Origin: Myxococcales bacterium
GTDB taxonomy: Bacteria; Myxococcota_A; Polyangia; Fen-1088
Assembly (NCBI GenBank): GCA_025350815.1
Contig: JANXXE010000218.1
Coordinates: 19,574 to 83,573, forward strand
Length of the DNA: 64,000 nucleotides
Direction of reading: 5' to 3'
The notes below the pieces were generated by a model, which did not search any database, was not told the DNA's origin, and was given only the letters and a program-made list of their open reading frames with translations. The translations under genes were made by a program, and so were the position numbers. Positions 30,353 through 42,942 of the stretch are shown in pieces. Numbering within the stretch: position 1 is the first letter of the stretch; the number at the start of each line of letters is the position of its first letter.

Positions 30353-31468
30353 TTACTTGGAACCCGCCGGGGCGGGGGTGGGCGGGACCGGCGCAGGGAG
30401 CGCCGGAGGGGCGGGCGCGGCGGGATCAGCGGGTTTTGGGGTATCCGCAGCCGGGGCGGCGGGGGCATCGCCGCCTGCGGGGGCCGCTTTGGCGGTTTCG
30501 GCGGCCTTGGCGGCTTTCGCAGCATCTTGGACAGCCTTCTGCGCCGCCCGCTGCTTATCCCGCTCCTCGGCCTTCTTGATGCGCTCGATGCGCTTTTCTT
30601 CCTTCTTGATGCCTTCCTGGGCTTCCAGAATGTAGGTGTCGGCGGGATCTTTCGGTGGAACACCGCCAGCCTGCTGCAGCATCTGCTTGTACTTCTGCAA
30701 GTGGCCAATCGCCGTGTTCATCTTGGCCGTGATGTCCATGTTTGGGATCTTGTCGGCGTCGAGGTACAGGATGCCCAAGTTGAAGACGGCGTCGGCGTAG
30801 TTCGGGAAAAGCTGGAGGGCTTTTTCGTAGGATGTCTTCGCCTTGTCGAAGTCCTTGAGGCCCCGGTAGGCGCTACCCAGATTCAGGTGCGCTCGCGAGT
30901 AAGCGGGTTGGAGCGCGACGGACTTTTCGAGGACAGGAACCGCCTCGCGGTAGTTCTTGACGGTGAGGTACTGCGCGCCGAGGTTGTTCCAGAAAATGGC
31001 GTTTTCAGGCCCCGCTTCCGTGGCCTTCTTGAGCTGCTCGATGGCACCGGGAATGTTCTTCCGCTCAAGCTCCATGAAGGCGAGGATCTGGTACATCTCG
31101 GCCTGGTCAGCGGCCGGGGCGTTATTCGCCTGCATCATCTTCCACAAGGTGCGCGTCCACTCGTACTTCTTCAGCTTGTAGTAGGCCTTGGCCATGATGA
31201 ACATGGCGGGGGTGTGGCGCTCGTTCTTGTTCAGGGCCGCCTTCGCCGCGGCTACCGCACCCCCAAAATTGCCGGCCTCGTATTGCTTCTTGGCGGCCTC
31301 GGTCTCCTCAGTCGGAATGGGTAGGGGCGGGGGTTCGCGCTTCTTCTTTCCGCCAGCCGCTGGCGCCGCTTCGACGGCCGGGGCCGGGGTCTGCGCGTAG
31401 GACGACGACGACCCGACGACGGAAAGCTGCCAACCCAGCGACAAGGCGACAAATCGCGTGATCTTCAT
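30353..31468 (-). CDS. TPR-repeat protein with signal peptide and Pro/Ala-rich C-terminus (GltE/NfsE-like)
   Basis: Start at Met 31468 (MKITRFVALSLGWQL...) forms an ATGA overlap with the upstream stop. Several TPR units (AKAYYKLKKYEW..., ...LGSAYRGLKDFDKAKTSYEKALQLFPNYADA...). C-terminal PAPA-rich tail. Confidence 0.6.
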   Translation of the reverse strand: MKITRFVALSLGWQLSVVGSSSSYAQTPAPAVEAAPAAGGKKKREPPPLPIPTEETEAAKKQYEAGNFGGAVAAAKAALNKNERHTPAMFIMAKAYYKLKKYEWTRTLWKMMQANNAPAADQAEMYQILAFMELERKNIPGAIEQLKKATEAGPENAIFWNNLGAQYLTVKNYREAVPVLEKSVALQPAYSRAHLNLGSAYRGLKDFDKAKTSYEKALQLFPNYADAVFNLGILYLDADKIPNMDITAKMNTAIGHLQKYKQMLQQAGGVPPKDPADTYILEAQEGIKKEEKRIERIKKAEERDKQRAAQKAVQDAAKAAKAAETAKAAPAGGDAPAAPAADTPKPADPAAPAPPALPAPVPPTPAPAGSK

Positions 31469-34400
31469 GGGGCCTCGATGGCGACTTTCTCGTCCTTGAT
31501 GAACGGGAACTCGTCGGGCAGGTACTTCGACAGCTTTTCGCGCGCTGACTTGACGTATTCGTTGGTCACACCCAGCTTCGACGCCATCTCCAGGGTGTCT
31601 CGCCACATCTTCTTGGCCTCGTCTTCGATGGGGGTCACGAACTGGAAGATTGCGTCCTTGTATTGGCCTTCGACAACGCCGCAGTCGTCCGGATTCGCCT
31701 TGCAGGCCATCTTGGCCAGCTTCTTGAGATCGTCGGGAGGATTGTCGGCCGCCTTGATGAGCTTCTGAGAGAACTCGTAGAAGATGTCGCCGCTGCGCAG
31801 GTACGAAGCGAGCGACCAGGTGGCGTACTTGTACTCGAAGATTTTCTGGTATTCCTCGCGCAGGGCCTTGGCCGAGGCAACGAAGTCGTCGAAGGTTTTC
31901 TTGATCTGCTCCGGCTTACCCTTGAATTCGAGCTTGCGGACCTGGAATGCCTTGAACTTCTCGTCAAGAAGCAGGTAGTCGGCTTTGGCGGCGGCGCCCG
32001 CGGCTTCGGAGGCAGCGGGCAGCTTGCGGCTGATGAATTCATCGCGCACGCGCTTGTAGGCGGCGAAGGTGGCCTTCTGGTCTTTACCCTGCTCGGCGAT
32101 GGTCGCCAGCTTCAGCAGCGAATTCACGACCGTCGGGCCGGCCGGCTGCTGCGAGCTATAGCGTTTGATCAGGTCGTTCAGGCACTTTCTGAGCTTGTCG
32201 GTGTCCTTCAGCTTCTCGTAGGCGGAACAAGAGGCTGCGAAGGCCTCGGATGAATCGAGGGGCTTATCGGCGACGGCATCGGCGTAGCGCTTATAGAAGT
32301 CGGCGGCCCGCGCGTATTGCTGGTCGTTATCGAGCAAGATGGCCGCCTGGGCCAGTGCCTCCTTGCGGTGCTCGTATTCGGCGAACTTGGGATCGGTGGC
32401 GACCTTCACGAAGCCCGTGACGGCCTGTTCGAACTCGAAGAAGCGGAAGTGGTTACGGGCCGCGTTCCAGATAGCGTCCTTGACCAGCACGCTCTCGGGG
32501 TATTCGCGCGCCAGGCGCTCGTAGCATTTCGTCGCCTCGCCGTACTGGAAGAGCTTCTCGTAGATGACGCAGACGTTGTTGAGGTTACCCGGGGCGTCCT
32601 GATCCTTCGGGTTCGCGTTGATCATGTCGAGCAGGTCGAGCGCCAGACTGATGTCGATGTCCGTCGAGACCTTGCTCGGCCCCGCTGCGACGGGCTTGCC
32701 ATCGGGGGTCGTGCCGGGGGTCGTGGCGGTCCCGGTTACGATTGCGATGCCGCCGTTGCCTTCCTTACACTGCGTGATCTGTTTGTTGGTGCCCTTCTCC
32801 TCGTTCTCCATCGCCAGCGTCAAGCGCTTGGAGATGATGGCCGACTTGACGGAGGTCCGAATGCCGTTGAAGCGGGCGGTGTATTCGGCCGCCTCCTTCG
32901 ACGGTGACTTGCCACAGACAGATCCACCGAACTGATCAGCGACCAGCAGAAGTTTACCAAGCGCGCAATCTTTTTGCTCTTCGTCCTCGATCAGATAGTC
33001 GATGAAATAGGTTTCCAGGATGGCGGAGTAGGCCTTGAGGCCCGTCTCGGGGGCGGAGGTGCAAGAGAAGTCCGCCACCTCCTGCAGGCGCGTGCGAGCC
33101 ACAGGCCAGTTCCGGTAACGCAACATGAGGACGGCGGCGGCATATCGAAGACCGGGCACGCGGGGATTGTTGGGCAAGGTCTTGACGAACCAGTCGAGGG
33201 AGACAAGGTACTTCTGATAAACGTCCGGCATCTCCAGCGGTGTGACGGGAGGCTTGGTGTTTTTCTGGTCGGGAATCGGGGGGTCTTCCAGCTTCTTTTC
33301 GTCCTTGAGCTTGGCAATCATGCCCTCGTAGGACTTCATGATCTGGACGGCCGCTTCTTCCTGGTACTTGTTGTCCAGGCTTGAATCGCGCACGGCGGTG
33401 TAGGCGACAATGGCCTCGGGCAGGCGATCCGCGTAGTACAGCGTGTCGGCGTAGGACTCGCTGAACTCGTAGGTGCTTTTCGAATTCGGGTAGACGGTCA
33501 GGTAGTTCTTGTAAAGTTCGGCGGCGTCGCCGTACAACTTCTGGCATTCCTGAAGCTTCTTCAGGTCGGACGGGCTCTCCCGCCACTTGTCCTTGCAGGC
33601 CTGGGCGATGATGTGAACGTTCTGGGCAGCAGCCTGCAACGCCTGCTCGGCAAGCTCAATGCCCAGCGCCAAGGCGTCGGGGTCGGCGCGGTTGGCCTTG
33701 TACCATTCGCTGCCTTTTTGATACGTGCGGCCGAGAATCTCGCGCTCTTTCGAGGCGGCCGCCATGTTGCGGTCTTTTTCGTAGGCCTTGACGATCTTGT
33801 CCTGCACCTGCGGCGCTTCGGCGGTCGTTGGCCACTTCTGCAGCACGGACCGGTAAACGGCGATGGCCTCGGGATACTTCGTCGAATCGAAGTAGATGTC
33901 GCCGAGTCGCTGGAAGACTTCCTTGACATGCGGCTCGCTCTCGCGACCCTTGTAGAAGGTCTGCGCCCGCTGCAAGCCGGTCTCGGGGTCAGGATTGGTG
34001 TCGCCATCCCAGTCGGGTTCAGAAAAGCTGACGCCGAGGTACTGAACAGCCTCGGGCCGAAGGTCGGAGCCGAATTTCTCACCGCTGGCCTTCTTGCCGT
34101 CGGCGAACTTCACGAGGTTGTCGAATTCCCGGATGGCCTCGGGAAACCGGTTGTCGCGGTAATACGACCACGCCAGCTTGTAAAGTGCCTTGTCGTAGTA
34201 GGAGGAATCCTTGATGGCGACCACGCGGCTGTAAGCCGAGATGGCGGGCCCCAGTTCGCCCGCGTCGAAGTGGGTCTCACCGACGCGCGTCCAGGCCTCG
34301 GCCAGGAACTTCGAGCCCTTCCGGACCGGAACGCAGTCCTTGTAGACGTCAACCTTCACGCCCGTGCGGGTCGTGGGTGACGGCGGTGGGGGGGGATCGA

Positions 34401-35031
34401 GCGGCTTGTAGCGGTTGGAACAGGTGAGAGCCAACAGCGCCTGGTTCGATTCGGCCTCCTTGCCCATTTCAGCAAGGCAGTAGCCAAGCAGGTAGTAGGC
34501 CGCGTCGAGCAACCGATAGGTGGGGAAGTCGGTAAGAAGACGACGGTAGAGGTCAACCGTGGGACCGTAGTCGGGTTTCGGTGGCTGCCCGTCGGGTGGT
34601 GTCGGGGACTCAAGAGCCTTCTGGAATGCCTCCTGGGCGGTGAGGTACTCGTCAGACGACTTTTCGTAGTAGAGCTCGGCCAGCCGAAACATCGCGTCCG
34701 GTGTCCAGCGCCGATCGTTGGGGTACTTCTTGAGGAAACCCTCGAACATGGCGATCGCGTCGAGGCGTCGCTGGCGTTCCTCCTTTTCGCTTTGGTTGAT
34801 CTCGGCTTCGTACTTGGACTTGATGGTCTTCATCTTGTCCATGTAGACGCGCTTGATCACGCTCGTGGCGGCGCTGCGGTAGCCCTTGACGGCTTCGGCA
34901 TAGCGCTGAACATCCTGGGCCATCTCCTGCAGAAGCTGAGGATTGGTCGGTGGCTCAGGAGCGGCGTGAGCGACGGGGGAAAGCGCGAGCAACGCGACGA
35001 GGCCGAGTGAGGCGCGATGAGGCAACCTCAC
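31465..35031 (-). CDS. giant TPR-repeat protein, 1188 aa, signal peptide (GltD/AgmU/NfsD-like)
   Basis: Signal peptide (LVALLALSPVAHA) followed by more than 20 TPR-like helical pairs along the entire length. Confidence 0.6.
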   Translation of the reverse strand: MRLPHRASLGLVALLALSPVAHAAPEPPTNPQLLQEMAQDVQRYAEAVKGYRSAATSVIKRVYMDKMKTIKSKYEAEINQSEKEERQRRLDAIAMFEGFLKKYPNDRRWTPDAMFRLAELYYEKSSDEYLTAQEAFQKALESPTPPDGQPPKPDYGPTVDLYRRLLTDFPTYRLLDAAYYLLGYCLAEMGKEAESNQALLALTCSNRYKPLDPPPPPSPTTRTGVKVDVYKDCVPVRKGSKFLAEAWTRVGETHFDAGELGPAISAYSRVVAIKDSSYYDKALYKLAWSYYRDNRFPEAIREFDNLVKFADGKKASGEKFGSDLRPEAVQYLGVSFSEPDWDGDTNPDPETGLQRAQTFYKGRESEPHVKEVFQRLGDIYFDSTKYPEAIAVYRSVLQKWPTTAEAPQVQDKIVKAYEKDRNMAAASKEREILGRTYQKGSEWYKANRADPDALALGIELAEQALQAAAQNVHIIAQACKDKWRESPSDLKKLQECQKLYGDAAELYKNYLTVYPNSKSTYEFSESYADTLYYADRLPEAIVAYTAVRDSSLDNKYQEEAAVQIMKSYEGMIAKLKDEKKLEDPPIPDQKNTKPPVTPLEMPDVYQKYLVSLDWFVKTLPNNPRVPGLRYAAAVLMLRYRNWPVARTRLQEVADFSCTSAPETGLKAYSAILETYFIDYLIEDEEQKDCALGKLLLVADQFGGSVCGKSPSKEAAEYTARFNGIRTSVKSAIISKRLTLAMENEEKGTNKQITQCKEGNGGIAIVTGTATTPGTTPDGKPVAAGPSKVSTDIDISLALDLLDMINANPKDQDAPGNLNNVCVIYEKLFQYGEATKCYERLAREYPESVLVKDAIWNAARNHFRFFEFEQAVTGFVKVATDPKFAEYEHRKEALAQAAILLDNDQQYARAADFYKRYADAVADKPLDSSEAFAASCSAYEKLKDTDKLRKCLNDLIKRYSSQQPAGPTVVNSLLKLATIAEQGKDQKATFAAYKRVRDEFISRKLPAASEAAGAAAKADYLLLDEKFKAFQVRKLEFKGKPEQIKKTFDDFVASAKALREEYQKIFEYKYATWSLASYLRSGDIFYEFSQKLIKAADNPPDDLKKLAKMACKANPDDCGVVEGQYKDAIFQFVTPIEDEAKKMWRDTLEMASKLGVTNEYVKSAREKLSKYLPDEFPFIKDEKVAIEAP

Positions 35032-37322
35032 TTGTCCTCCTGAAGCAATGCGTGGAAGTCGTCGTCGATGGCCTTCAGCTCCTGCTTTTGCTGCGTGATG
35101 AGCTGCGTGAGCTTGGAGGTCTTTTGATCCTTGAGACCCCAGGAGACGTCGATAAGACCGACGTCAGACTGCACAACAAGATCGTAGAAGCGGTCGGTCA
35201 CTTTGCCGAGGACTGCCTGCGCGAGGCCACCGCCAAGAGCCTGCGATTCGCCCAGCAGCGATGAGAAGCGACCCGTCGCCGCCTGGATCTGAATCTTCTC
35301 GGCCGCGAGTCGTTCTTTGATCGAACCAAGGCGGCGCTCGGCTGCGGCATCGACGCGACCGTCGAAGTTCTGAAGCTGTGACTGCACAAGTGACGCTCGG
35401 GTGATCACGCCGGCGAGTGCATCGAACTCGCCACGCGCTTCGGGGCTCATCTTGTTGCGGACCTTCTGGTAGATCTCGTATTCGCGACCCATCACGGACG
35501 CCAGTCGTCCGGCCGCGTTGCGCTCTCCATCGGCGGTCACCGAGCCAGCCAGGCGAGTGGCCTCCAGCACCTCCTCGTGGATCCGGTCGTGCGCTCCCCG
35601 CAGAGCTGCGATCGAAGCCCGCAATTCGGCCACCGGACGCTTGAGCTCCTCGGGCCGAATCTTCTGTTCGGTTTTCGAATTGCTGTAGTACTGCTCGACG
35701 GCGATCAGTTCCGCCTCCATGGTCTGGATCGCGACATAAGACTCGGCAAGACGTGTCTGAAATTCCTGAATTTGGTTGCGCGCCACGTCCTCGCGGTTGC
35801 GGCTGTCTCCCTCTGCGGAAGGCAGGGTCTCGATTTGCTGTTCCAGGCGGGCGCGATCAAAACCCATTTCGTCCAGGGCCACGGTTTCGGTGGACGACAG
35901 GTGGGGTGCGGCCAGGCTTCGGGCGCGTTCCAGGAACCTGCGCCTGATGTCCAGGGCCTGGCTCAAAACCTCGTTTGATCGAGATCGCGCGGCTGCCAAA
36001 TCGGGAAAGATCGCGATCTTTCCTTCGCCGTTTACGACCCGCTCCAGCCGACCGATGGTTTGCTCGGTCTCCCGGATGCCGCGTTGAAGTTCGCCCACCT
36101 CACTGGCCAGGTTGACCATGCGGGTTAAATCGGGATCAGCCTTGAGCCATCTGACCGCCACCGGCGGTACGAACAAGGCGATGTCGAATCGTTCGAGACC
36201 CTTGCCGATCAGGGACTCGAAGTAGTGGGGTTCCGACTGTGACCGGGCAAGCGCGGACTTGAGTTGGGTGTGAATGGGCTCGAATTCCTCACGGGCCGAG
36301 CCAAAGATTTCGTTGGCCTGGAAATAGTTGTTGATACGCAGGTTAAGGTTGCCCATCAGGAGCCGCAGTTCCGGGGCTTCGGGACTGTTGGGGCTTTGCA
36401 GGAGCATGAGGTCGAGCGCGCGGTAGGCGGCCTTGTAATCCTTGGCCTTGATGGAGTTCCAGGCCGATTCGTACATCGCGTCAGCGAAGTACTTGGATTG
36501 GCGGCTTATGGCGGAATAGAGGTCCTTGGCCTTGTCGGCTTGGCCGCGTTCGTAAAGGAGGCGGGCGATGGCAAGACGGGCCAGATCCTGAATGTCATTG
36601 TCAGCGTCGCTGCGCGGCTGGACTTTGAGAACGGCGTCGAATCCCGTAGCGGCAGCGGCCAGATTGCCCTTCTTGACCTGGGTCGTGGCGAAGAAGTACA
36701 GCCCCTGCAGGTAATAGGGATTGTCGGTCCCGATGGCGGAAAAAGCCGCCAACGCCTCGTCGGTCCGATCGCGGAAAAAAAGGTACTTGCCCTTGACGTA
36801 CGGAACCGACGGTTCGAGCTGGTTCGACGGAATCTTATCAAGCCGCGCCAAGTATTCCTCGACGTTGTCGTAGTCGCCGGTGCGCAGGGTTAGCTCGACC
36901 AGGCGCTGTAGAGCACTTTGTTCCTTGCGCGAACCGGTGTTCCGCTTGATGGCCTGCTGGAAGTAGGTACGCGCCGAGTTGTAGTCCTTGCTTTGATAGA
37001 GCGACTCACCCAAAAGCACCAACGCGTCATCCGCCGCCCTGGACCCAGGCCATTTCTCCAGCACATCGAGCAGGATGGTCGCGGCGCCCACGTAGTTGCC
37101 CAGGCTGTAGTAGCCTTCAGCCTCGATGACGCGGCGGTCGGGCGCGTTGATGTCCGGCGCCGGCGCGTCCCGTAGCTCAGCCGTGAGCACGCGGACCCGT
37201 TCTTCCAGGTCGATCAGGCTGCGGTTCGCATCATCGATCCTGTCGTCAGCACGACCGCCCCGGACCGGAACGATCAGAAGCGCCAGGACGGCAAGCGCAA
37301 GCTGCCATTTCGTCAGACCCAT
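35028..37322 (-). CDS. TPR-repeat / coiled-coil protein with signal peptide, 764 aa (GltC/NfsC-like)
   Basis: Signal (LALAVLALLIVPVRG), an N-terminal TPR array and a C-terminal long coiled coil. ATGA-coupled to the downstream giant TPR gene. Confidence 0.55.
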   Translation of the reverse strand: MGLTKWQLALAVLALLIVPVRGGRADDRIDDANRSLIDLEERVRVLTAELRDAPAPDINAPDRRVIEAEGYYSLGNYVGAATILLDVLEKWPGSRAADDALVLLGESLYQSKDYNSARTYFQQAIKRNTGSRKEQSALQRLVELTLRTGDYDNVEEYLARLDKIPSNQLEPSVPYVKGKYLFFRDRTDEALAAFSAIGTDNPYYLQGLYFFATTQVKKGNLAAAATGFDAVLKVQPRSDADNDIQDLARLAIARLLYERGQADKAKDLYSAISRQSKYFADAMYESAWNSIKAKDYKAAYRALDLMLLQSPNSPEAPELRLLMGNLNLRINNYFQANEIFGSAREEFEPIHTQLKSALARSQSEPHYFESLIGKGLERFDIALFVPPVAVRWLKADPDLTRMVNLASEVGELQRGIRETEQTIGRLERVVNGEGKIAIFPDLAAARSRSNEVLSQALDIRRRFLERARSLAAPHLSSTETVALDEMGFDRARLEQQIETLPSAEGDSRNREDVARNQIQEFQTRLAESYVAIQTMEAELIAVEQYYSNSKTEQKIRPEELKRPVAELRASIAALRGAHDRIHEEVLEATRLAGSVTADGERNAAGRLASVMGREYEIYQKVRNKMSPEARGEFDALAGVITRASLVQSQLQNFDGRVDAAAERRLGSIKERLAAEKIQIQAATGRFSSLLGESQALGGGLAQAVLGKVTDRFYDLVVQSDVGLIDVSWGLKDQKTSKLTQLITQQKQELKAIDDDFHALLQEDK

Positions 37323-37341
37323 GCCACGGCCCCAGGCTTTG

Positions 37342-38181
37342 TCACTTCTTGCTGGTACTGGTCGCGGCCCCGCCCTGCGGCGCGAGAACGTTCACGCGAA
37401 ATTCGATATCGGGCTTGTCTTCCATGTTGGTGGCAATGCTGCCTTTTTCGTAGCCAACTGCGGTGACGATCGTGGCCTTACCCTCGCCGGCAATGAACGT
37501 GTGACTGGAGCGTACAGCGAACTTGTAGCCACGGAGATAACTAAACACGCCGAAGCCATTGCCCTGGTACACCAGTTGAACCGTCAGCGTGTGCGAGCCC
37601 GGCTGGATGGCGCCGTTGTACACGTCGAACTCGGTCATCTCGGACAGCTTCCCGGTGTCCTCCGCCTTGGAGAAGATCTGAACCCCATCGAGCGCGTAGA
37701 CGACCTTGATCAGGCGGAACGAATTGCTCATCTCGTTCTTGTGGCGAATCACGCCGCGCGAAGCGCCGATGACACCGCCCAAAACCGTTTCCTTAAGAAC
37801 GTTCAGGCGCAGCTTGGTGCGAAAGACCTGCTCTTTGAGCTCGTTCACGCTGCGCTCAAGGGAACGGAGTCGGATGATGTAGGCACCAGCGTCGCTGCCC
37901 GCCCCGCCGGCGGCAGGCGGCCCCGCGGGTGGCGGGGCCCCGGTGGCAGAAGGTGGCGCAGCGCCGGGCGCCGGACTGGCGGTCGACGGGCCCGGTAGGC
38001 CCGACGGGGTGGCCGGAGCCGCGGCGGCAACCGCAGCAGTGACCGCAGGAGCGGCTCCAGCGGCGGAAGGAACGGCGGGGTTGGCGCCGGTATTGGCCTT
38101 GGGCGCTTGGCCGTAGGCAGTACTGGTGGCACCAAGGACGGTCATCAGTCCCAGCAGCCCCCAGGTTCGCAGCAGTCTCAT
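37342..38181 (-). CDS. secreted protein with Pro/Ala-rich linker and beta-rich C-terminal domain (first gene of operon)
   Basis: Start at the internal Met 38181, preceded by a GAGGGA ribosome-binding site. Signal MRLLRTWGLLGLMTVLGATSTAYGQ, then about 90 aa of P/A-rich sequence, a coiled coil, and a beta-strand-rich domain. Confidence 0.5.
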   Translation of the reverse strand: MRLLRTWGLLGLMTVLGATSTAYGQAPKANTGANPAVPSAAGAAPAVTAAVAAAAPATPSGLPGPSTASPAPGAAPPSATGAPPPAGPPAAGGAGSDAGAYIIRLRSLERSVNELKEQVFRTKLRLNVLKETVLGGVIGASRGVIRHKNEMSNSFRLIKVVYALDGVQIFSKAEDTGKLSEMTEFDVYNGAIQPGSHTLTVQLVYQGNGFGVFSYLRGYKFAVRSSHTFIAGEGKATIVTAVGYEKGSIATNMEDKPDIEFRVNVLAPQGGAATSTSKK

Positions 38182-38247
38182 TATGGCAGCTCCCTCTCGG
38201 CGTCTAGGGGCATATGCCTCGCCCACAGAGTCTTTGTGAACGTCATC

Positions 38248-38277
38248 TGTATACCAGGGGCTTTCAACGCGAGTCAA
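38248..38277 (-). promoter_or_regulatory. candidate sigma70-type promoter of the TPR/Glt-like operon
   Basis: Minus strand reads TTGACT-18 nt-TATACA about 65 nt upstream of the 38181 start codon. It lies in a 275-bp intergenic region of lower GC and overlaps one copy of a duplicated motif. Confidence 0.3.
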
Positions 38278-38456
38278 AAGTTCCATGCACTCGATCCGCC
38301 TGGATCCGCTTGGCACGTGCCCGTCGCCAGGGTCATCTGTATCACGCTGGCTTTCCAGTCAGCTTTGCAGGCCAGCTTTCCAGCTTTCCCAACCCAACCT
38401 TGGACGCGGCAACTTTTCACGAGGCCGGCATCTTATCACAGCTTAAGGGGAATTCT

Positions 38457-39530
<1,074 letters not shown>

Positions 39531-39593
39531 TTACCAGCGCGACCGGACCGACACTGCGGGTCCCTGGCGTCGCACGAGGCTTGCCCCTTCGGG

Positions 39594-39854
39594 CTAGGCC
39601 TCGAGCTTGGCGTCTACTTTGACGGTCTGACGAGCGCCAGAGTGGCCGTAGCGAACCGTCCCCTCTTTGAGCGCGAACAGCGTGAAGTCGCGACCCATGC
39701 CCACGTTCATACCCGGGTGAAACACCGTCCCGACCTGGCGCACCAGGATGTTTCCAGCCAGCACGTGCTCACCGCCGAAACGCTTGACGCCCCGACGCTG
39801 ACCCTGAGAGTCGCGTCCATTGCGGGAACTTCCTTGGCCTTTTTTGTGAGCCAT
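39594..39854 (-). CDS. rpmA: 50S ribosomal protein L27
   Basis: [29 protein letters not shown]... is canonical L27. Confidence 0.95.
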
Positions 39855-39859
39855 GAGCC

Positions 39860-40180
39860 TTAGGCCTTCGCCCCGGAGATGGCCGTGATCTTCAGCGCAG
39901 TGAAGGGCTGACGGTGGCCGGTCTTGCGGCGGTAACTCTTTCGCCGCTTGTATTTGAAGATGATGATCTTCTTGCCCAGGCCCTGTTCCAGGACCTCGGC
40001 CTCGACCTTCATACCCGGGACGTGGGGACGTCCTAGGGTCACGCCACCGCCGTCGTCGGCGAACATAAGTGGGTCAAACGTCAGCTTATCCCCAGCAGAC
40101 GCAGGCAGCTTCTCCACGCGCAGGGTTTCCCCTTCGGCCACGCGGTACTGCTTTCCTCCGGTTTCGATAACGGCATACAT
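39860..40180 (-). CDS. rplU: 50S ribosomal protein L21
   Basis: [25 protein letters not shown]... is canonical L21. The start is taken at the MYAVI Met rather than the upstream in-frame ATG. Confidence 0.9.
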
Positions 40181-40257
40181 GGTTCTTGGCTCCAAGCGAG
40201 TCGGCTAATTTAGAACAGCCTACGTCCCTGTCAAGCACTTCCTGGGAAACTGGGAAA

Positions 40258-40671
40258 CTATCCCTTTCGGGCCCGGGCGCCTGGCTTGGTCTTGGCGGCG
40301 CGGCGGTCGGCGCGGTACTTCGCAATCTGGTCCTTCGCCACACCCTTGTGGCTGCTGCACACCATTCCAAAGATGGGCGCGGCGACATTCTTGCAGCCGG
40401 GGACCGGACAGAATTGCTTGGGTCGCCTTCGCCTCGGTGCGCGGCGCGCTGCCGGAACAGAAACCGCCGATGAAATGCCGGGGCGGTTTTTTGGCGGGCG
40501 ACCACGCCGGCGTGGAAGTCCGAGTGCCCCGCCAGCGCCCAGCGCAGACAGCAGAGCCGCCTGCACCCTTTCAGTGGCCCGTATTTGGACGGCAACTGCA
40601 AGCCGGGTCACGAAACCGTCGACCAGGATTCTTAGATCGGAATTGAGGCCGCCCGCGTTGCGGTTTGTCAT
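40258..40671 (-). CDS. hypothetical small basic protein with AT-hook (RRGRPPK) and C-terminal CxxC..C..H cluster
   Basis: Only the 3' half has high third-position GC. The N-terminal half is doubtful and the true start may be internal. Confidence 0.25.
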   Translation of the reverse strand: MTNRNAGGLNSDLRILVDGFVTRLAVAVQIRATERVQAALLSALGAGGALGLPRRRGRPPKNRPGISSAVSVPAARRAPRRRRPKQFCPVPGCKNVAAPIFGMVCSSHKGVAKDQIAKYRADRRAAKTKPGARARKG

Positions 40672-40839
40672 TGGATGCCCGGGAGAATGGTGCGACTACC
40701 TTTTGAAGTAAAGGCATTTTGCGGACGGGTCGCACTGCTTTTGCTTGACCGCCATCGTTGCGCGAACGATAGATCGGCCTCGGACATGGCTGCCTCAGAG
40801 CAATTGCCCCCGGCGGGCATTTCAAAAGTCGTTTCGAAC

Positions 40840-42942
40840 ATGAACGGTGGAGATCTGCGCGCCCAGCTTTCCCGTTATTCCGATATCGCCTTGGCGGCGC
40901 TGGTCGTTGGCATCGTCGGGATGATGATCATTCCGCTGCCGACCTTCTTGCTGGATCTGTTGATTTCTCTGAACATCGCCGTTTCCGTCACGTTGCTGCT
41001 TATTGCCATTTACGTGAGCGATGCGCTGAAGATAGCCACGTTCCCGTCGCTGTTGCTTATTACGACCTTGTTTCGCCTGGCACTGGAGGTGTCCGCGACG
41101 CGGCTGATCCTTCTGAAGGCCGATGGGGGCGAGGTCATTCACGCCTTCGGCAATTTTGTCGTTGCCGGAAATCTGGTCGTCGGTGGGGTTATCTTCTTTA
41201 TCTTGACGATCATCCAATTCGTGGTGATTTCGAAAGGCGCCGAACGCGTGGCCGAGGTCGGGGCGCGCTTCACCCTGGATGCGATGCCCGGAAAGCAGAT
41301 GTCCATCGACGCGGAGCTGCGCGGGGGGCACATCGACCACCACGAGGCGCGGCGGCGGCGGGCCCTGTTGACGCGAGAATCGCAATTCTTTGGCGCCATG
41401 GACGGCGCGATGAAGTTCGTGAAGGGCGATGCGATCGCCGGCGTGGTGGTGTTGGTCACCAATATCGTGGGCGGCCTGATCATTGGTATGGTTCAGCGCG
41501 GCCTGGACGCGGGCGCCGCTGCGCGGACGTATACCGTGTTGACGATCGGCGAAGGCCTGGTCGCGCAGATTCCGGCACTTATCATCTCGACCGCGGCCGG
41601 TATTATTGTCACGCGCGTGTCGTCGGAGGAGGAAGGCGGACATCTGGGCCGGGACATCGGCCTGCAGATCCTTGGCCAACCGAAGGCGCTGGGGATCGCA
41701 GGAGCCCTGTTGTTGGCAATGGCACTGGTGCCGGGTCTTCCCACTGTGCCGTTTCTGTTGCTGGGGCTGGTCCTGTGTTTTGTGGCTTATCAACTGCCGA
41801 CCCTGGGCCGAGACCCGTCGTCAGCCACTTCGGACGATACGTCACAGGGTGGCGCCGCCGCCCGCGGCCCTGCGACGCGCGATGGGGCAGCGGGCCGGTC
41901 AGAAGCGCTACCCTTGCTGGCGCCCATCGCGATCGAACTGGCCGGCCCCCTGGCGGACGAGGTACTGGCGGGCGCAGGCGGGGCACGTCTGTTGCGCGAG
42001 GTCATTCCGGCGCTGCGCGAGCGATACTTTGCCGAGACCGGTATCGTCCTGCCTGCGGTCAGACTGCGACCCATCGTTGGTGCGCTGAACGACGGTGGCT
42101 TCGTGATTCGTCTGAACGAGGTGCCGATGGCCAGGGGCGAGGTCGTCCCGGGTGGGGGGCTGACCTTCGAAACCCCCGCGCGGTTGGCGGCAGCGAACGT
42201 GCCGTCGAGGACCACCGTGTATCCGGACGGGACGGCGGCAGCGTGGATTGCACGGGAAGATCTGGCGGCGGCGCGGGTGAACGGCATCGCGGTCCTCGGG
42301 ACTGAGGAATTCATCGCCGCCCATTTGTTGCAACTGGTGCGGCGTTACGGCCATGAGTTCGTCGGCGTCCAGGAAGCGCAGGCTTTGCTCGACGGGATCG
42401 AAAAGACCCAGCCGGCCCTGGTACGGGAAGTCGTTCCCAAGCTGGTCTCGCCCATCTTGCTGGCCGATGTCTTGCGGCGCCTTGCCGAGGAGCGCGTGTC
42501 GCTGCGCGACCTGCGAGAGATTCTGGGGGCGCTGGCGCAATGGGCACCGCACGAACGAGATCCGGTGGCGCTGACGGAACACGTGCGGGCGGCTTTGCGC
42601 AGGCAAATCACCCACCAGTATGCCGGCGCGGCCGGGACGCTGGGGGTGTTCATGCTGGACCCAGTTATCGAGGACACGGTTCGAGAGGCGATTCACAAGA
42701 CGGCCTCGGGAAGTTACCTTGCGCTAGAGCCAGGGCTGGCGCGCGACATCGTAATGGCCGTGCGCCGGGCGATCCCGGCCAGCAACAGCATGCCGGTCCT
42801 GGTGACGAATGCCGACATCCGCCGTTATGTGAAACGCCTGGTCGAAGGTGAGCTGCCCGGCTTGGCCGTGCTGTCGTTCCAGGAGCTGTCGCCCGAGACG
42901 CAGCTGCAGCCTCTGGGCCGGGTCAGCGTCGCGGAGGCGTGA
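40840..42942 (+). CDS. FHIPEP-family export-gate protein (FlhA / SctV homolog)
   Basis: Start at the MNGGDLRAQLSRYSDIALAA Met. Eight TM helices with ...FPSLLLITTLFRLALEVSATRLIL... and the FHIPEP signature GARFTLDAMPGKQMSIDAEL. Large C-terminal cytoplasmic domain. Confidence 0.85.
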   Translation: MNGGDLRAQLSRYSDIALAALVVGIVGMMIIPLPTFLLDLLISLNIAVSVTLLLIAIYVSDALKIATFPSLLLITTLFRLALEVSATRLILLKADGGEVIHAFGNFVVAGNLVVGGVIFFILTIIQFVVISKGAERVAEVGARFTLDAMPGKQMSIDAELRGGHIDHHEARRRRALLTRESQFFGAMDGAMKFVKGDAIAGVVVLVTNIVGGLIIGMVQRGLDAGAAARTYTVLTIGEGLVAQIPALIISTAAGIIVTRVSSEEEGGHLGRDIGLQILGQPKALGIAGALLLAMALVPGLPTVPFLLLGLVLCFVAYQLPTLGRDPSSATSDDTSQGGAAARGPATRDGAAGRSEALPLLAPIAIELAGPLADEVLAGAGGARLLREVIPALRERYFAETGIVLPAVRLRPIVGALNDGGFVIRLNEVPMARGEVVPGGGLTFETPARLAAANVPSRTTVYPDGTAAAWIAREDLAAARVNGIAVLGTEEFIAAHLLQLVRRYGHEFVGVQEAQALLDGIEKTQPALVREVVPKLVSPILLADVLRRLAEERVSLRDLREILGALAQWAPHERDPVALTEHVRAALRRQITHQYAGAAGTLGVFMLDPVIEDTVREAIHKTASGSYLALEPGLARDIVMAVRRAIPASNSMPVLVTNADIRRYVKRLVEGELPGLAVLSFQELSPETQLQPLGRVSVAEA

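Follow-up and report, generated by a model that had tools for sequence, protein, structure and literature searches.

The 64,000-nt stretch of Myxococcales DNA analysed here (the window) encodes on its minus strand a Glt-like gene cluster, which is separated from the preceding gene, obg, by a spacer of 275 bp containing a conspicuous repeat. An initial annotation had read this spacer as a regulated promoter with a repeated binding site for an activator or repressor, and the question was therefore whether the spacer is a promoter and whether the repeat within it is a regulator site. Comparison with related Polyangia loci gave strong support for the promoter, while the repeated activator or repressor site was not supported. 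The explanation that we prefer, and regard as probable, is a promoter region with two conserved sigma-70-type elements, termed P1 and P2, together with a lineage-specific partial duplicate of P1.

Gene context of the spacer

The features discussed below are collected in Table 1. The upstream neighbours of the spacer are rplU-rpmA-obg, with obg as the last of the three genes, and the first gene of the cluster downstream encodes a secreted protein of 279 aa. This protein has no Pfam or NCBIfam match, and no Pfam domain was present in its 918 homologues found at E <= 0.001 among 8000 candidates scored, the sources of which were Polyangia metagenome bins. Its C-terminal domain of about 180 aa is highly conserved, with 70-87% identity in the listed homologues, one of which is named 'dihydrolipoamide acetyltransferase' in its source, probably because of the Pro/Ala-rich linker. 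The segment GAGAGGGAGCT..ATG of the gene is kept in L002, the closest relative having P1, and the N-terminus MRLLRTWGLLGL is kept in the relatives. Downstream follow genes for TPR proteins of 764, 1188 and 417 aa and for a GltG/GltJ-like protein of 472 aa, whose AgmX/PglI C-terminal domain passes the NCBIfam cut-off of 40 with 106.6 bits. The NCBIfam equivalog scores within the cluster are far under their cut-offs (GltG 192.9 against 650, GltE 47.9 against 225 and GltC 58.3 against 450) and, as all three fall below, the label 'Glt-like' is fair at the domain level only.

The same contig is present, identical, in three samples, and the sequence is therefore not a one-off assembly artefact. The spacer was confirmed to be lower in GC than its surroundings (0.56 as against 0.644 for the window); only 2.1% of all 275-nt windows are as low, yet several spots are lower. 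It had also been called the only sizeable intergenic region of its block, which holds for the cluster itself; another low-GC gap lies at about 40196-40674. This second sizeable non-coding region near the spacer, of about 480 bp, separates rplU from a divergent gene of the FHIPEP family (FlhA/SctV-type export gate; 40675-42942, plus strand).

In related loci with enough upstream DNA, obg almost always directly precedes the gene for the 279-aa protein, with a spacer of 93-423 bp. The gene order rplU-rpmA-obg, 279-aa protein, TPR764, TPR1188 (31465-40195 of the window, minus strand) is kept in almost every related Polyangia locus (L002, L006 and L008-L091), and an envelope/gliding-type machine thus stands consistently directly behind a ribosome-associated GTPase operon in these bacteria, with no terminator-like site between the two. 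A terminator scan found no intrinsic terminator between obg and the cluster, and P1 and P2 would therefore add to any read-through from obg.

Table 1. Positions of genes, putative promoter elements and repeats at the spacer (window coordinates; where a range is given in descending order, it is read along the minus strand)
Feature	Coordinates	Strand	Remarks
Intergenic spacer, 275 bp	38182-38456	-	flanked by the stop codon of obg (38459-38457) and the ATG of the first cluster gene (38181)
obg (GTPase ObgE/CgtA)	38457-39527	-	Pfam GTP1_OBG, 3.4e-61; NCBIfam ObgE, 486.8 bits (cut-off 406)
Gene for 279-aa secreted protein, first of the Glt-like cluster	37342-38181	-	Pro/Ala-rich linker and conserved C-terminal domain
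Shine-Dalgarno sequence and start codon	38179-38194	-	GGGAG 38194-38190; ATG 38181-38179; first cluster gene
P1 (putative promoter)	38248-38277	-	-35 TTGACT (38277-38272); 18-nt spacer ending TGG (38256-38254); -10 TATACA (38253-38248)
P2 (putative extended -10 element), GTGATAAGAT	38430-38439	-	TGnTAnnAT; TG 38438-38437; hexamer TAAGAT 38435-38430
Proximal repeat copy, TTGAAAGCCCCTGGTATACAGATGAC	38242-38267	-	P1 spacer, extended -10, -10 and discriminator
Distal repeat copy, CTGACT-G-GAAAGCC-AGCGTG-ATACAGATGAC	38332-38362	-	putative degenerate P1 duplicate; as a promoter, TGaTACAGA 15 nt past CTGACT
8-nt tandem repeat, CCAGCTTT x2.2	38372-38389	.	GGAAAGCT on the minus strand; TRF score 36, 100% matches
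10-nt tandem repeat, GATCCGCCTG x2.1, and palindrome GGCACGTGCC	38293-38321	.	repeat 38293-38313 (TRF); palindrome 38312-38321

P1 is conserved upstream of the orthologous gene

The promoter proposed in the initial annotation, with TTGACT and TATACA separated by 18 nt on the minus strand, is present as claimed and lies about 66 nt upstream of the ATG of the cluster. Its conservation was assessed in 91 related Polyangia loci, 552 kb of which were scanned on both strands with the pattern TTGAC-N15/16-(C)CTGn-TATAnA. This gave 78 matches, every one of them (78/78) just upstream of the orthologous gene, with 78 of the 91 loci positive, and a single match in the 64-kb window (38277-38248), which is the site that had been annotated. 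The general form of the element in these loci is TTGAC(T/G/C), 15-16 nt, (C)CTGn and TATA(C/G/A/T)A. When information content was calculated from 29 representatives differing by >25%, positions outside the constraint of the pattern were also informative, namely the T before TTGAC (1.2 bits), the two C residues before TG (1.1 and 1.5 bits) and positions 3 and 6 of the -10 hexamer (1.8 and 1.6 bits, respectively).

In its -35, its spacer and its TGn extension P1 has the features expected of a sigma-70-type promoter. Its -35 hexamer agrees with TTGACA at 5 of 6 positions, its spacer of 18 nt is within 17 +/- 1 nt (19 of the representatives have 18 nt and 10 have 17 nt), and a TGn extension, here TGG, directly precedes the -10 hexamer. 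The latter, TATACA, agrees with TATAAT at 4 of 6 positions; the A at position 2 is invariant, and position 6 is A in nearly all relatives. With a hexamer ending in A, P1 failed a sigma-70 scan, which demands T at position 6 and returned 0 sites. A literature search found no promoter consensus for the sigma-A of Myxococcota and nothing on the regulation of glt promoters.

With the customary gap of about 7 nt between the -10 hexamer and the start, transcription from P1 would begin near 38241. A weakly conserved CCTC/CCTT (0.8-0.9 bits per position) is found in relatives 7-10 nt past the -10, near the expected start, where the window has GTTC. We also considered an N-terminal extension of the first gene from the ATG at 38286 or the GTG at 38316 and rejected it, as the relatives start at a MRLLRTWG-type signal peptide after a conserved Shine-Dalgarno sequence; the apparent 'extension' of the open reading frame is P1, conserved at the DNA level.

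P2 and its spacing to P1

At or just past the stop codon of obg lies a second putative element, P2, of the form TGnTAnnAT (TGaTAAGAT in the window), which is conserved in 51 relatives. In the 552 kb its pattern was matched 59 times, in 52 cases upstream of P1, and the match in the spacer is the only one in the window. The hexamers are TAGGAT (33), TAAGAT (14), TATCAT (3), TACGAT (1) and TAGTAT (1). T-12, A-11, A-8 and T-7 are thus invariant, as in an extended -10 element, and fixed ends around two variable middle positions are the pattern expected of a -10 element. The start of transcription from P2 would fall near 38423.

The distance from P2 to P1 is 59-86 nt in the 51 relatives (median 64; 59-70 nt bar one case at 86), with 70 nt in L002, L039 and L090, and the 162 nt found in the window is the only outlier. 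This spacing is held although the intervening sequence is not conserved (L002, L009 and L011-L090). Some lineages have P2 only (L004 and L005) and others P1 only (L006, L008, L010 and the TTGACC clade), a distribution that fits two independent promoters. The two loci with P2 only are the closest relatives at the protein level (C-terminal domain 87% and 83% identical), with a spacer of about 100 nt (L004, 717-837; L005, 159-255) that contains P2 and no P1; P1 has therefore been lost at least once. On this comparative evidence P1 and P2 are putative promoters that probably drive the Glt-like cluster.

A probable partial copy of P1 within a lineage-specific stretch

The duplicated motif of the initial annotation is real and its copies are 90 bp apart, each lying one base to the left of where it had been placed. 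Read on the plus strand, the repeat is GTCATCTGTAT-N6-GGCTTTC, at 38242-38265 (GTCATCTGTATACCAGGGGCTTTC in full) and at 38332-38355 (GTCATCTGTATCACGCTGGCTTTC). Both copies share the exact 11-mer GTCATCTGTAT and the exact 7-mer GGCTTTC in register at an offset of 90; the AC that was said to follow the 11-mer is in register in the proximal copy only. The repeat is rarer than chance: the best gapped self-alignment of the 275 nt scored 25, whereas dinucleotide shuffles scored 16.5 +/- 2.3 and only 2 out of 300 reached 25, and ungapped self-similarity of the spacer had a z-score of 4.1, with 0 of 60 shuffles reaching the observed value. The pattern, with its 18 specified bases, had no third match in the 64-kb window at <=3 mismatches, nor did the motif recur in some 270 kb of sequence from related loci.

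The proximal copy consists of parts of P1 itself, namely its spacer, -10 and discriminator. The distal copy has the same parts in the same order, CTGACT, GAAAGCC and ATACAGATGAC as compared with TTGACT, GAAAGCC and ATACAGATGAC in P1, and its gapped alignment to P1 consists of collinear blocks of 5, 7 and 11 identical bases (TGACT, GAAAGCC and ATACAGATGAC). Its spacer is 5 nt shorter than that of P1 and the conserved CCTGnT is absent. Outside this core of about 37 nt the two 90-nt units are without detectable similarity, since 90 of 500 shuffles scored as well as the upstream 53 nt (p ~0.18) and 886 of 2000 as well as the downstream block. Extension of the duplication downstream (GGCGA..GGCAYRTGCC) or upstream was tried and gave nothing significant. 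Thus, with the similarity confined to the core, a simple recent tandem duplication of 90 bp does not fit.

The differences between the copies are clustered, 5 of the mismatches falling into one 6-nt patch while the 18 flanking bases are identical; by our own estimate, which assumes an even spread, the chance of finding 5 mismatches in 25 positions so close together is about 0.002. Even neutral decay does not fit this distribution, which could have come about by selection on the flanking blocks or by separate small copying events. Such blocky identity is the best argument for a protein-binding repeat, and it also fits a re-registered third promoter, with TGaTACAGA after CTGACT-N15.

Set against the relatives, all of them at <=87% protein identity, the window has about 92 nt extra between P2 and P1. 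This stretch occurs in no relative and holds the distal copy together with two short tandem repeats. The excess agrees with the offsets of the repeat, 85 nt from one -35 element to the other and 90 nt for the -10 elements, as a local duplication would have it. At 77 nt from P2 (69 nt if the 8-nt tandem duplication is discounted), the distal copy falls in the range of P1 in the relatives and would thus sit at about the ancestral position of P1.

The run of CAGCTTT(G/C) noted earlier was found again, as three copies at 38360-38389. GAAAGC occurs four times on the minus strand of the 275 nt, where 0.07 occurrences would be expected from the composition of the window, and 0 of 2000 shuffles reached four. 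The perfect 10-bp palindrome GGCACGTGCC between the repeat copies is not unexpected, about 0.26 such palindromes being expected in 275 nt by our own estimate; a similar sequence, GGCATATGCC, is found in the 5'UTR at about 38208-38217, its likeness to GGCACGTGCC not being statistically significant. A sigma-54 reading of GGGCACGTGCCAAGC (GG-N10-GC, 38322-38308) was rejected, as this sequence belongs to the lineage-specific stretch, is part of the palindrome and has no counterpart in relatives.

Unrelated direct repeats are found in the same spacer elsewhere, including five copies of the 11-nt GGAAGACCAGC in L049, two copies of a 34-nt unit in L083, a tandem of the 11-nt GCTACCGGCAA in L068, a repeat with an offset of 19 nt in L044 and a duplicated GGAGATTGACC in the -35 region of L054. 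With repeats of their own in several lineages, the spacer is evidently prone to local duplication.

Alternative readings of the repeat

Instead, the two copies could serve a lineage-specific transcription factor as operators, one of them over the spacer, -10 and start of P1, where binding would occlude the promoter, and the other 90 bp upstream, acting through cooperativity or looping, with GGAAAGC perhaps as extra half-sites. The copies agree exactly in blocks of 7 and 11 bases and differ at 5 of the 6 bases in between, the promoter positions CCTGnT that are most conserved in relatives, the excess of GAAAGC is marked, and the spacing of 90 bp is like that of auxiliary operators such as lac O1-O3. 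Comparison with relatives spoke against a regulator site: a second copy is missing from all of the roughly 75 orthologous spacers, and the information content of those repeat positions that lie beyond the core promoter (GAAAGCC, CAGATGAC) is only 0.1-0.6 bits in the 29 representatives. Likewise, L002 keeps just 3 of the 7 and 6 of the 11 block bases, other copies are absent from the 64-kb window and the roughly 270 kb of related loci, and 90 bp corresponds to 8.6 helical turns, a distance that puts the sites out of phase where looping on the same face is concerned. The collinear TGACT block at the -35 is moreover not needed for an operator and is expected of a copied promoter. An operator pair is thus unlikely, and the narrower form of this idea, in which GAAAGCC-N6-ATACAGATGAC newly evolved into an operator pair for a lineage-specific regulator through duplication of the promoter core, we consider quite improbable. 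If it were true, a constitutive, widely conserved promoter of an envelope/gliding machine would have become a looped, switchable one, and the exactness of the flanking blocks, next to an extended -10 that is scrambled, would be the outcome of selection that kept binding but not promoter activity.

Hardly more probable than this narrower form is a distal copy that works as a third promoter, with CTGACT, a 15-nt spacer ending in TGa and TACAGA, so that three promoters about 90 nt apart would be kept to raise or diversify expression. TG-n does stand right before TACAGA, a hexamer that conforms to the TA[T/C]A-n-A family of the relatives (such as TACAAA of L040), the copy stands at the ancestral distance from P2, and a TGnTA..AGATG-like core is common to P2, P1 and the distal copy. 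However, its -35 matches at 4 of 6 positions, its spacer is only 15 nt (13 nt in the register of the repeat), the conserved CC before TG is lost and, being unique to this lineage, it has no support from conservation. Very improbable indeed is chance similarity, or a structured RNA (leader, riboswitch or sRNA) with the repeats as RNA elements, even though gapped self-similarity is only moderately significant (2 of 300 shuffles, as mentioned above) and the 5' leader of a transcript derived from P2 would measure about 240 nt. Chance is opposed by the ungapped z-score of 4.1 and by the three collinear blocks, and a structured RNA by the lack of any Rfam match at E <= 10 within 38182-38456 and by folding energies, calculated for the leader from P2 and for the plus strand, that were no better than those of shuffles on either strand (z -0.28 and -0.53). 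The Rfam search of 37900-38800 at E <= 10 returned just two weak matches, which lie inside the flanking genes. A recurrent hairpin that was seen by eye in the 5'UTR past P1 was discarded, as the 56 distinct orthologous 5'UTRs that were folded averaged a z of only -0.8 and had no fold in common. Two antisense open reading frames (38214-38609 and 38107-38460) were likewise set aside, with no Pfam match.

Our preferred reading thus remains a promoter region of an ordinary kind, with a footprint of conservation that is unusually clear and a lineage-specific partial duplicate of P1. Under it, P2 and P1 would both read toward the cluster, and read-through from obg may contribute as well. Local duplication or slippage may have copied the core of P1 in this lineage, adding about 92 nt, and this insertion would have pushed the intact P1 away from P2. 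A degenerate copy would have been left at about the old position of P1, where it would now be decayed or at most a weak promoter.

Comparison with known systems

Tandem extended -10 sigma-70 promoters are known, for example E. coli gal P1/P2 and rrn P1/P2. P1 resembles these in its TTGAC -35, its 18-nt spacer and the TGn before the -10, and P2 in its invariant T-12, A-11, A-8 and T-7; the two elements also point in the same direction before one operon, and some lineages manage with one of them. In contrast to such promoters, the -10 of P1 has a final A instead of T in nearly every lineage, the P1 spacer is close to the upper limit of length and the distance between P2 and P1 is kept at 59-70 nt in nearly all relatives.

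In the looping systems with auxiliary operators, lac O1 and O3 are 92 bp apart, and gal has the pair OE and OI. Here, too, there are two similar sites about 90 bp apart with one of them over the core promoter, a resemblance in spacing only. Unlike the lac and gal operators, the copies are direct repeats and not palindromes, they are out of phase at 8.6 turns, and the distal site is absent from relatives. The likeness to local duplication or slippage extends to the length excess that equals the repeat offset, the collinear blocks, the two repeats found by TRF and the unrelated repeats in other lineages. A clean tandem duplication differs in that only about 37 nt of each 90-nt unit are similar here and the mismatches are clustered, and a single event is insufficient.

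The cluster itself is like the Agl-Glt and Nfs clusters of Myxococcus xanthus in its TPR proteins with sub-threshold similarity to GltC and GltE and in its GltG/GltJ-like protein that passes AgmX/PglI. It differs from them in that the equivalogs are below cut-off and neither Pfam nor NCBIfam has a match for the first gene, and its fixed position after rplU-rpmA-obg is, as set against the M. xanthus clusters, a feature of the Polyangia loci.

These results offer a well-supported promoter annotation, P2 and P1 with a spacing conserved over dozens of lineages, for a Glt-like envelope-machinery cluster in uncultured Polyangia without mapped promoters. They also suggest that a repeat which catches the eye at a promoter can stem from local duplication, as a by-product, and need not be a regulator site. 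What motility biology gains is modest, comprising concrete positions for reporter fusions and a test case of whether a copied promoter core may turn into an operator or a third promoter.
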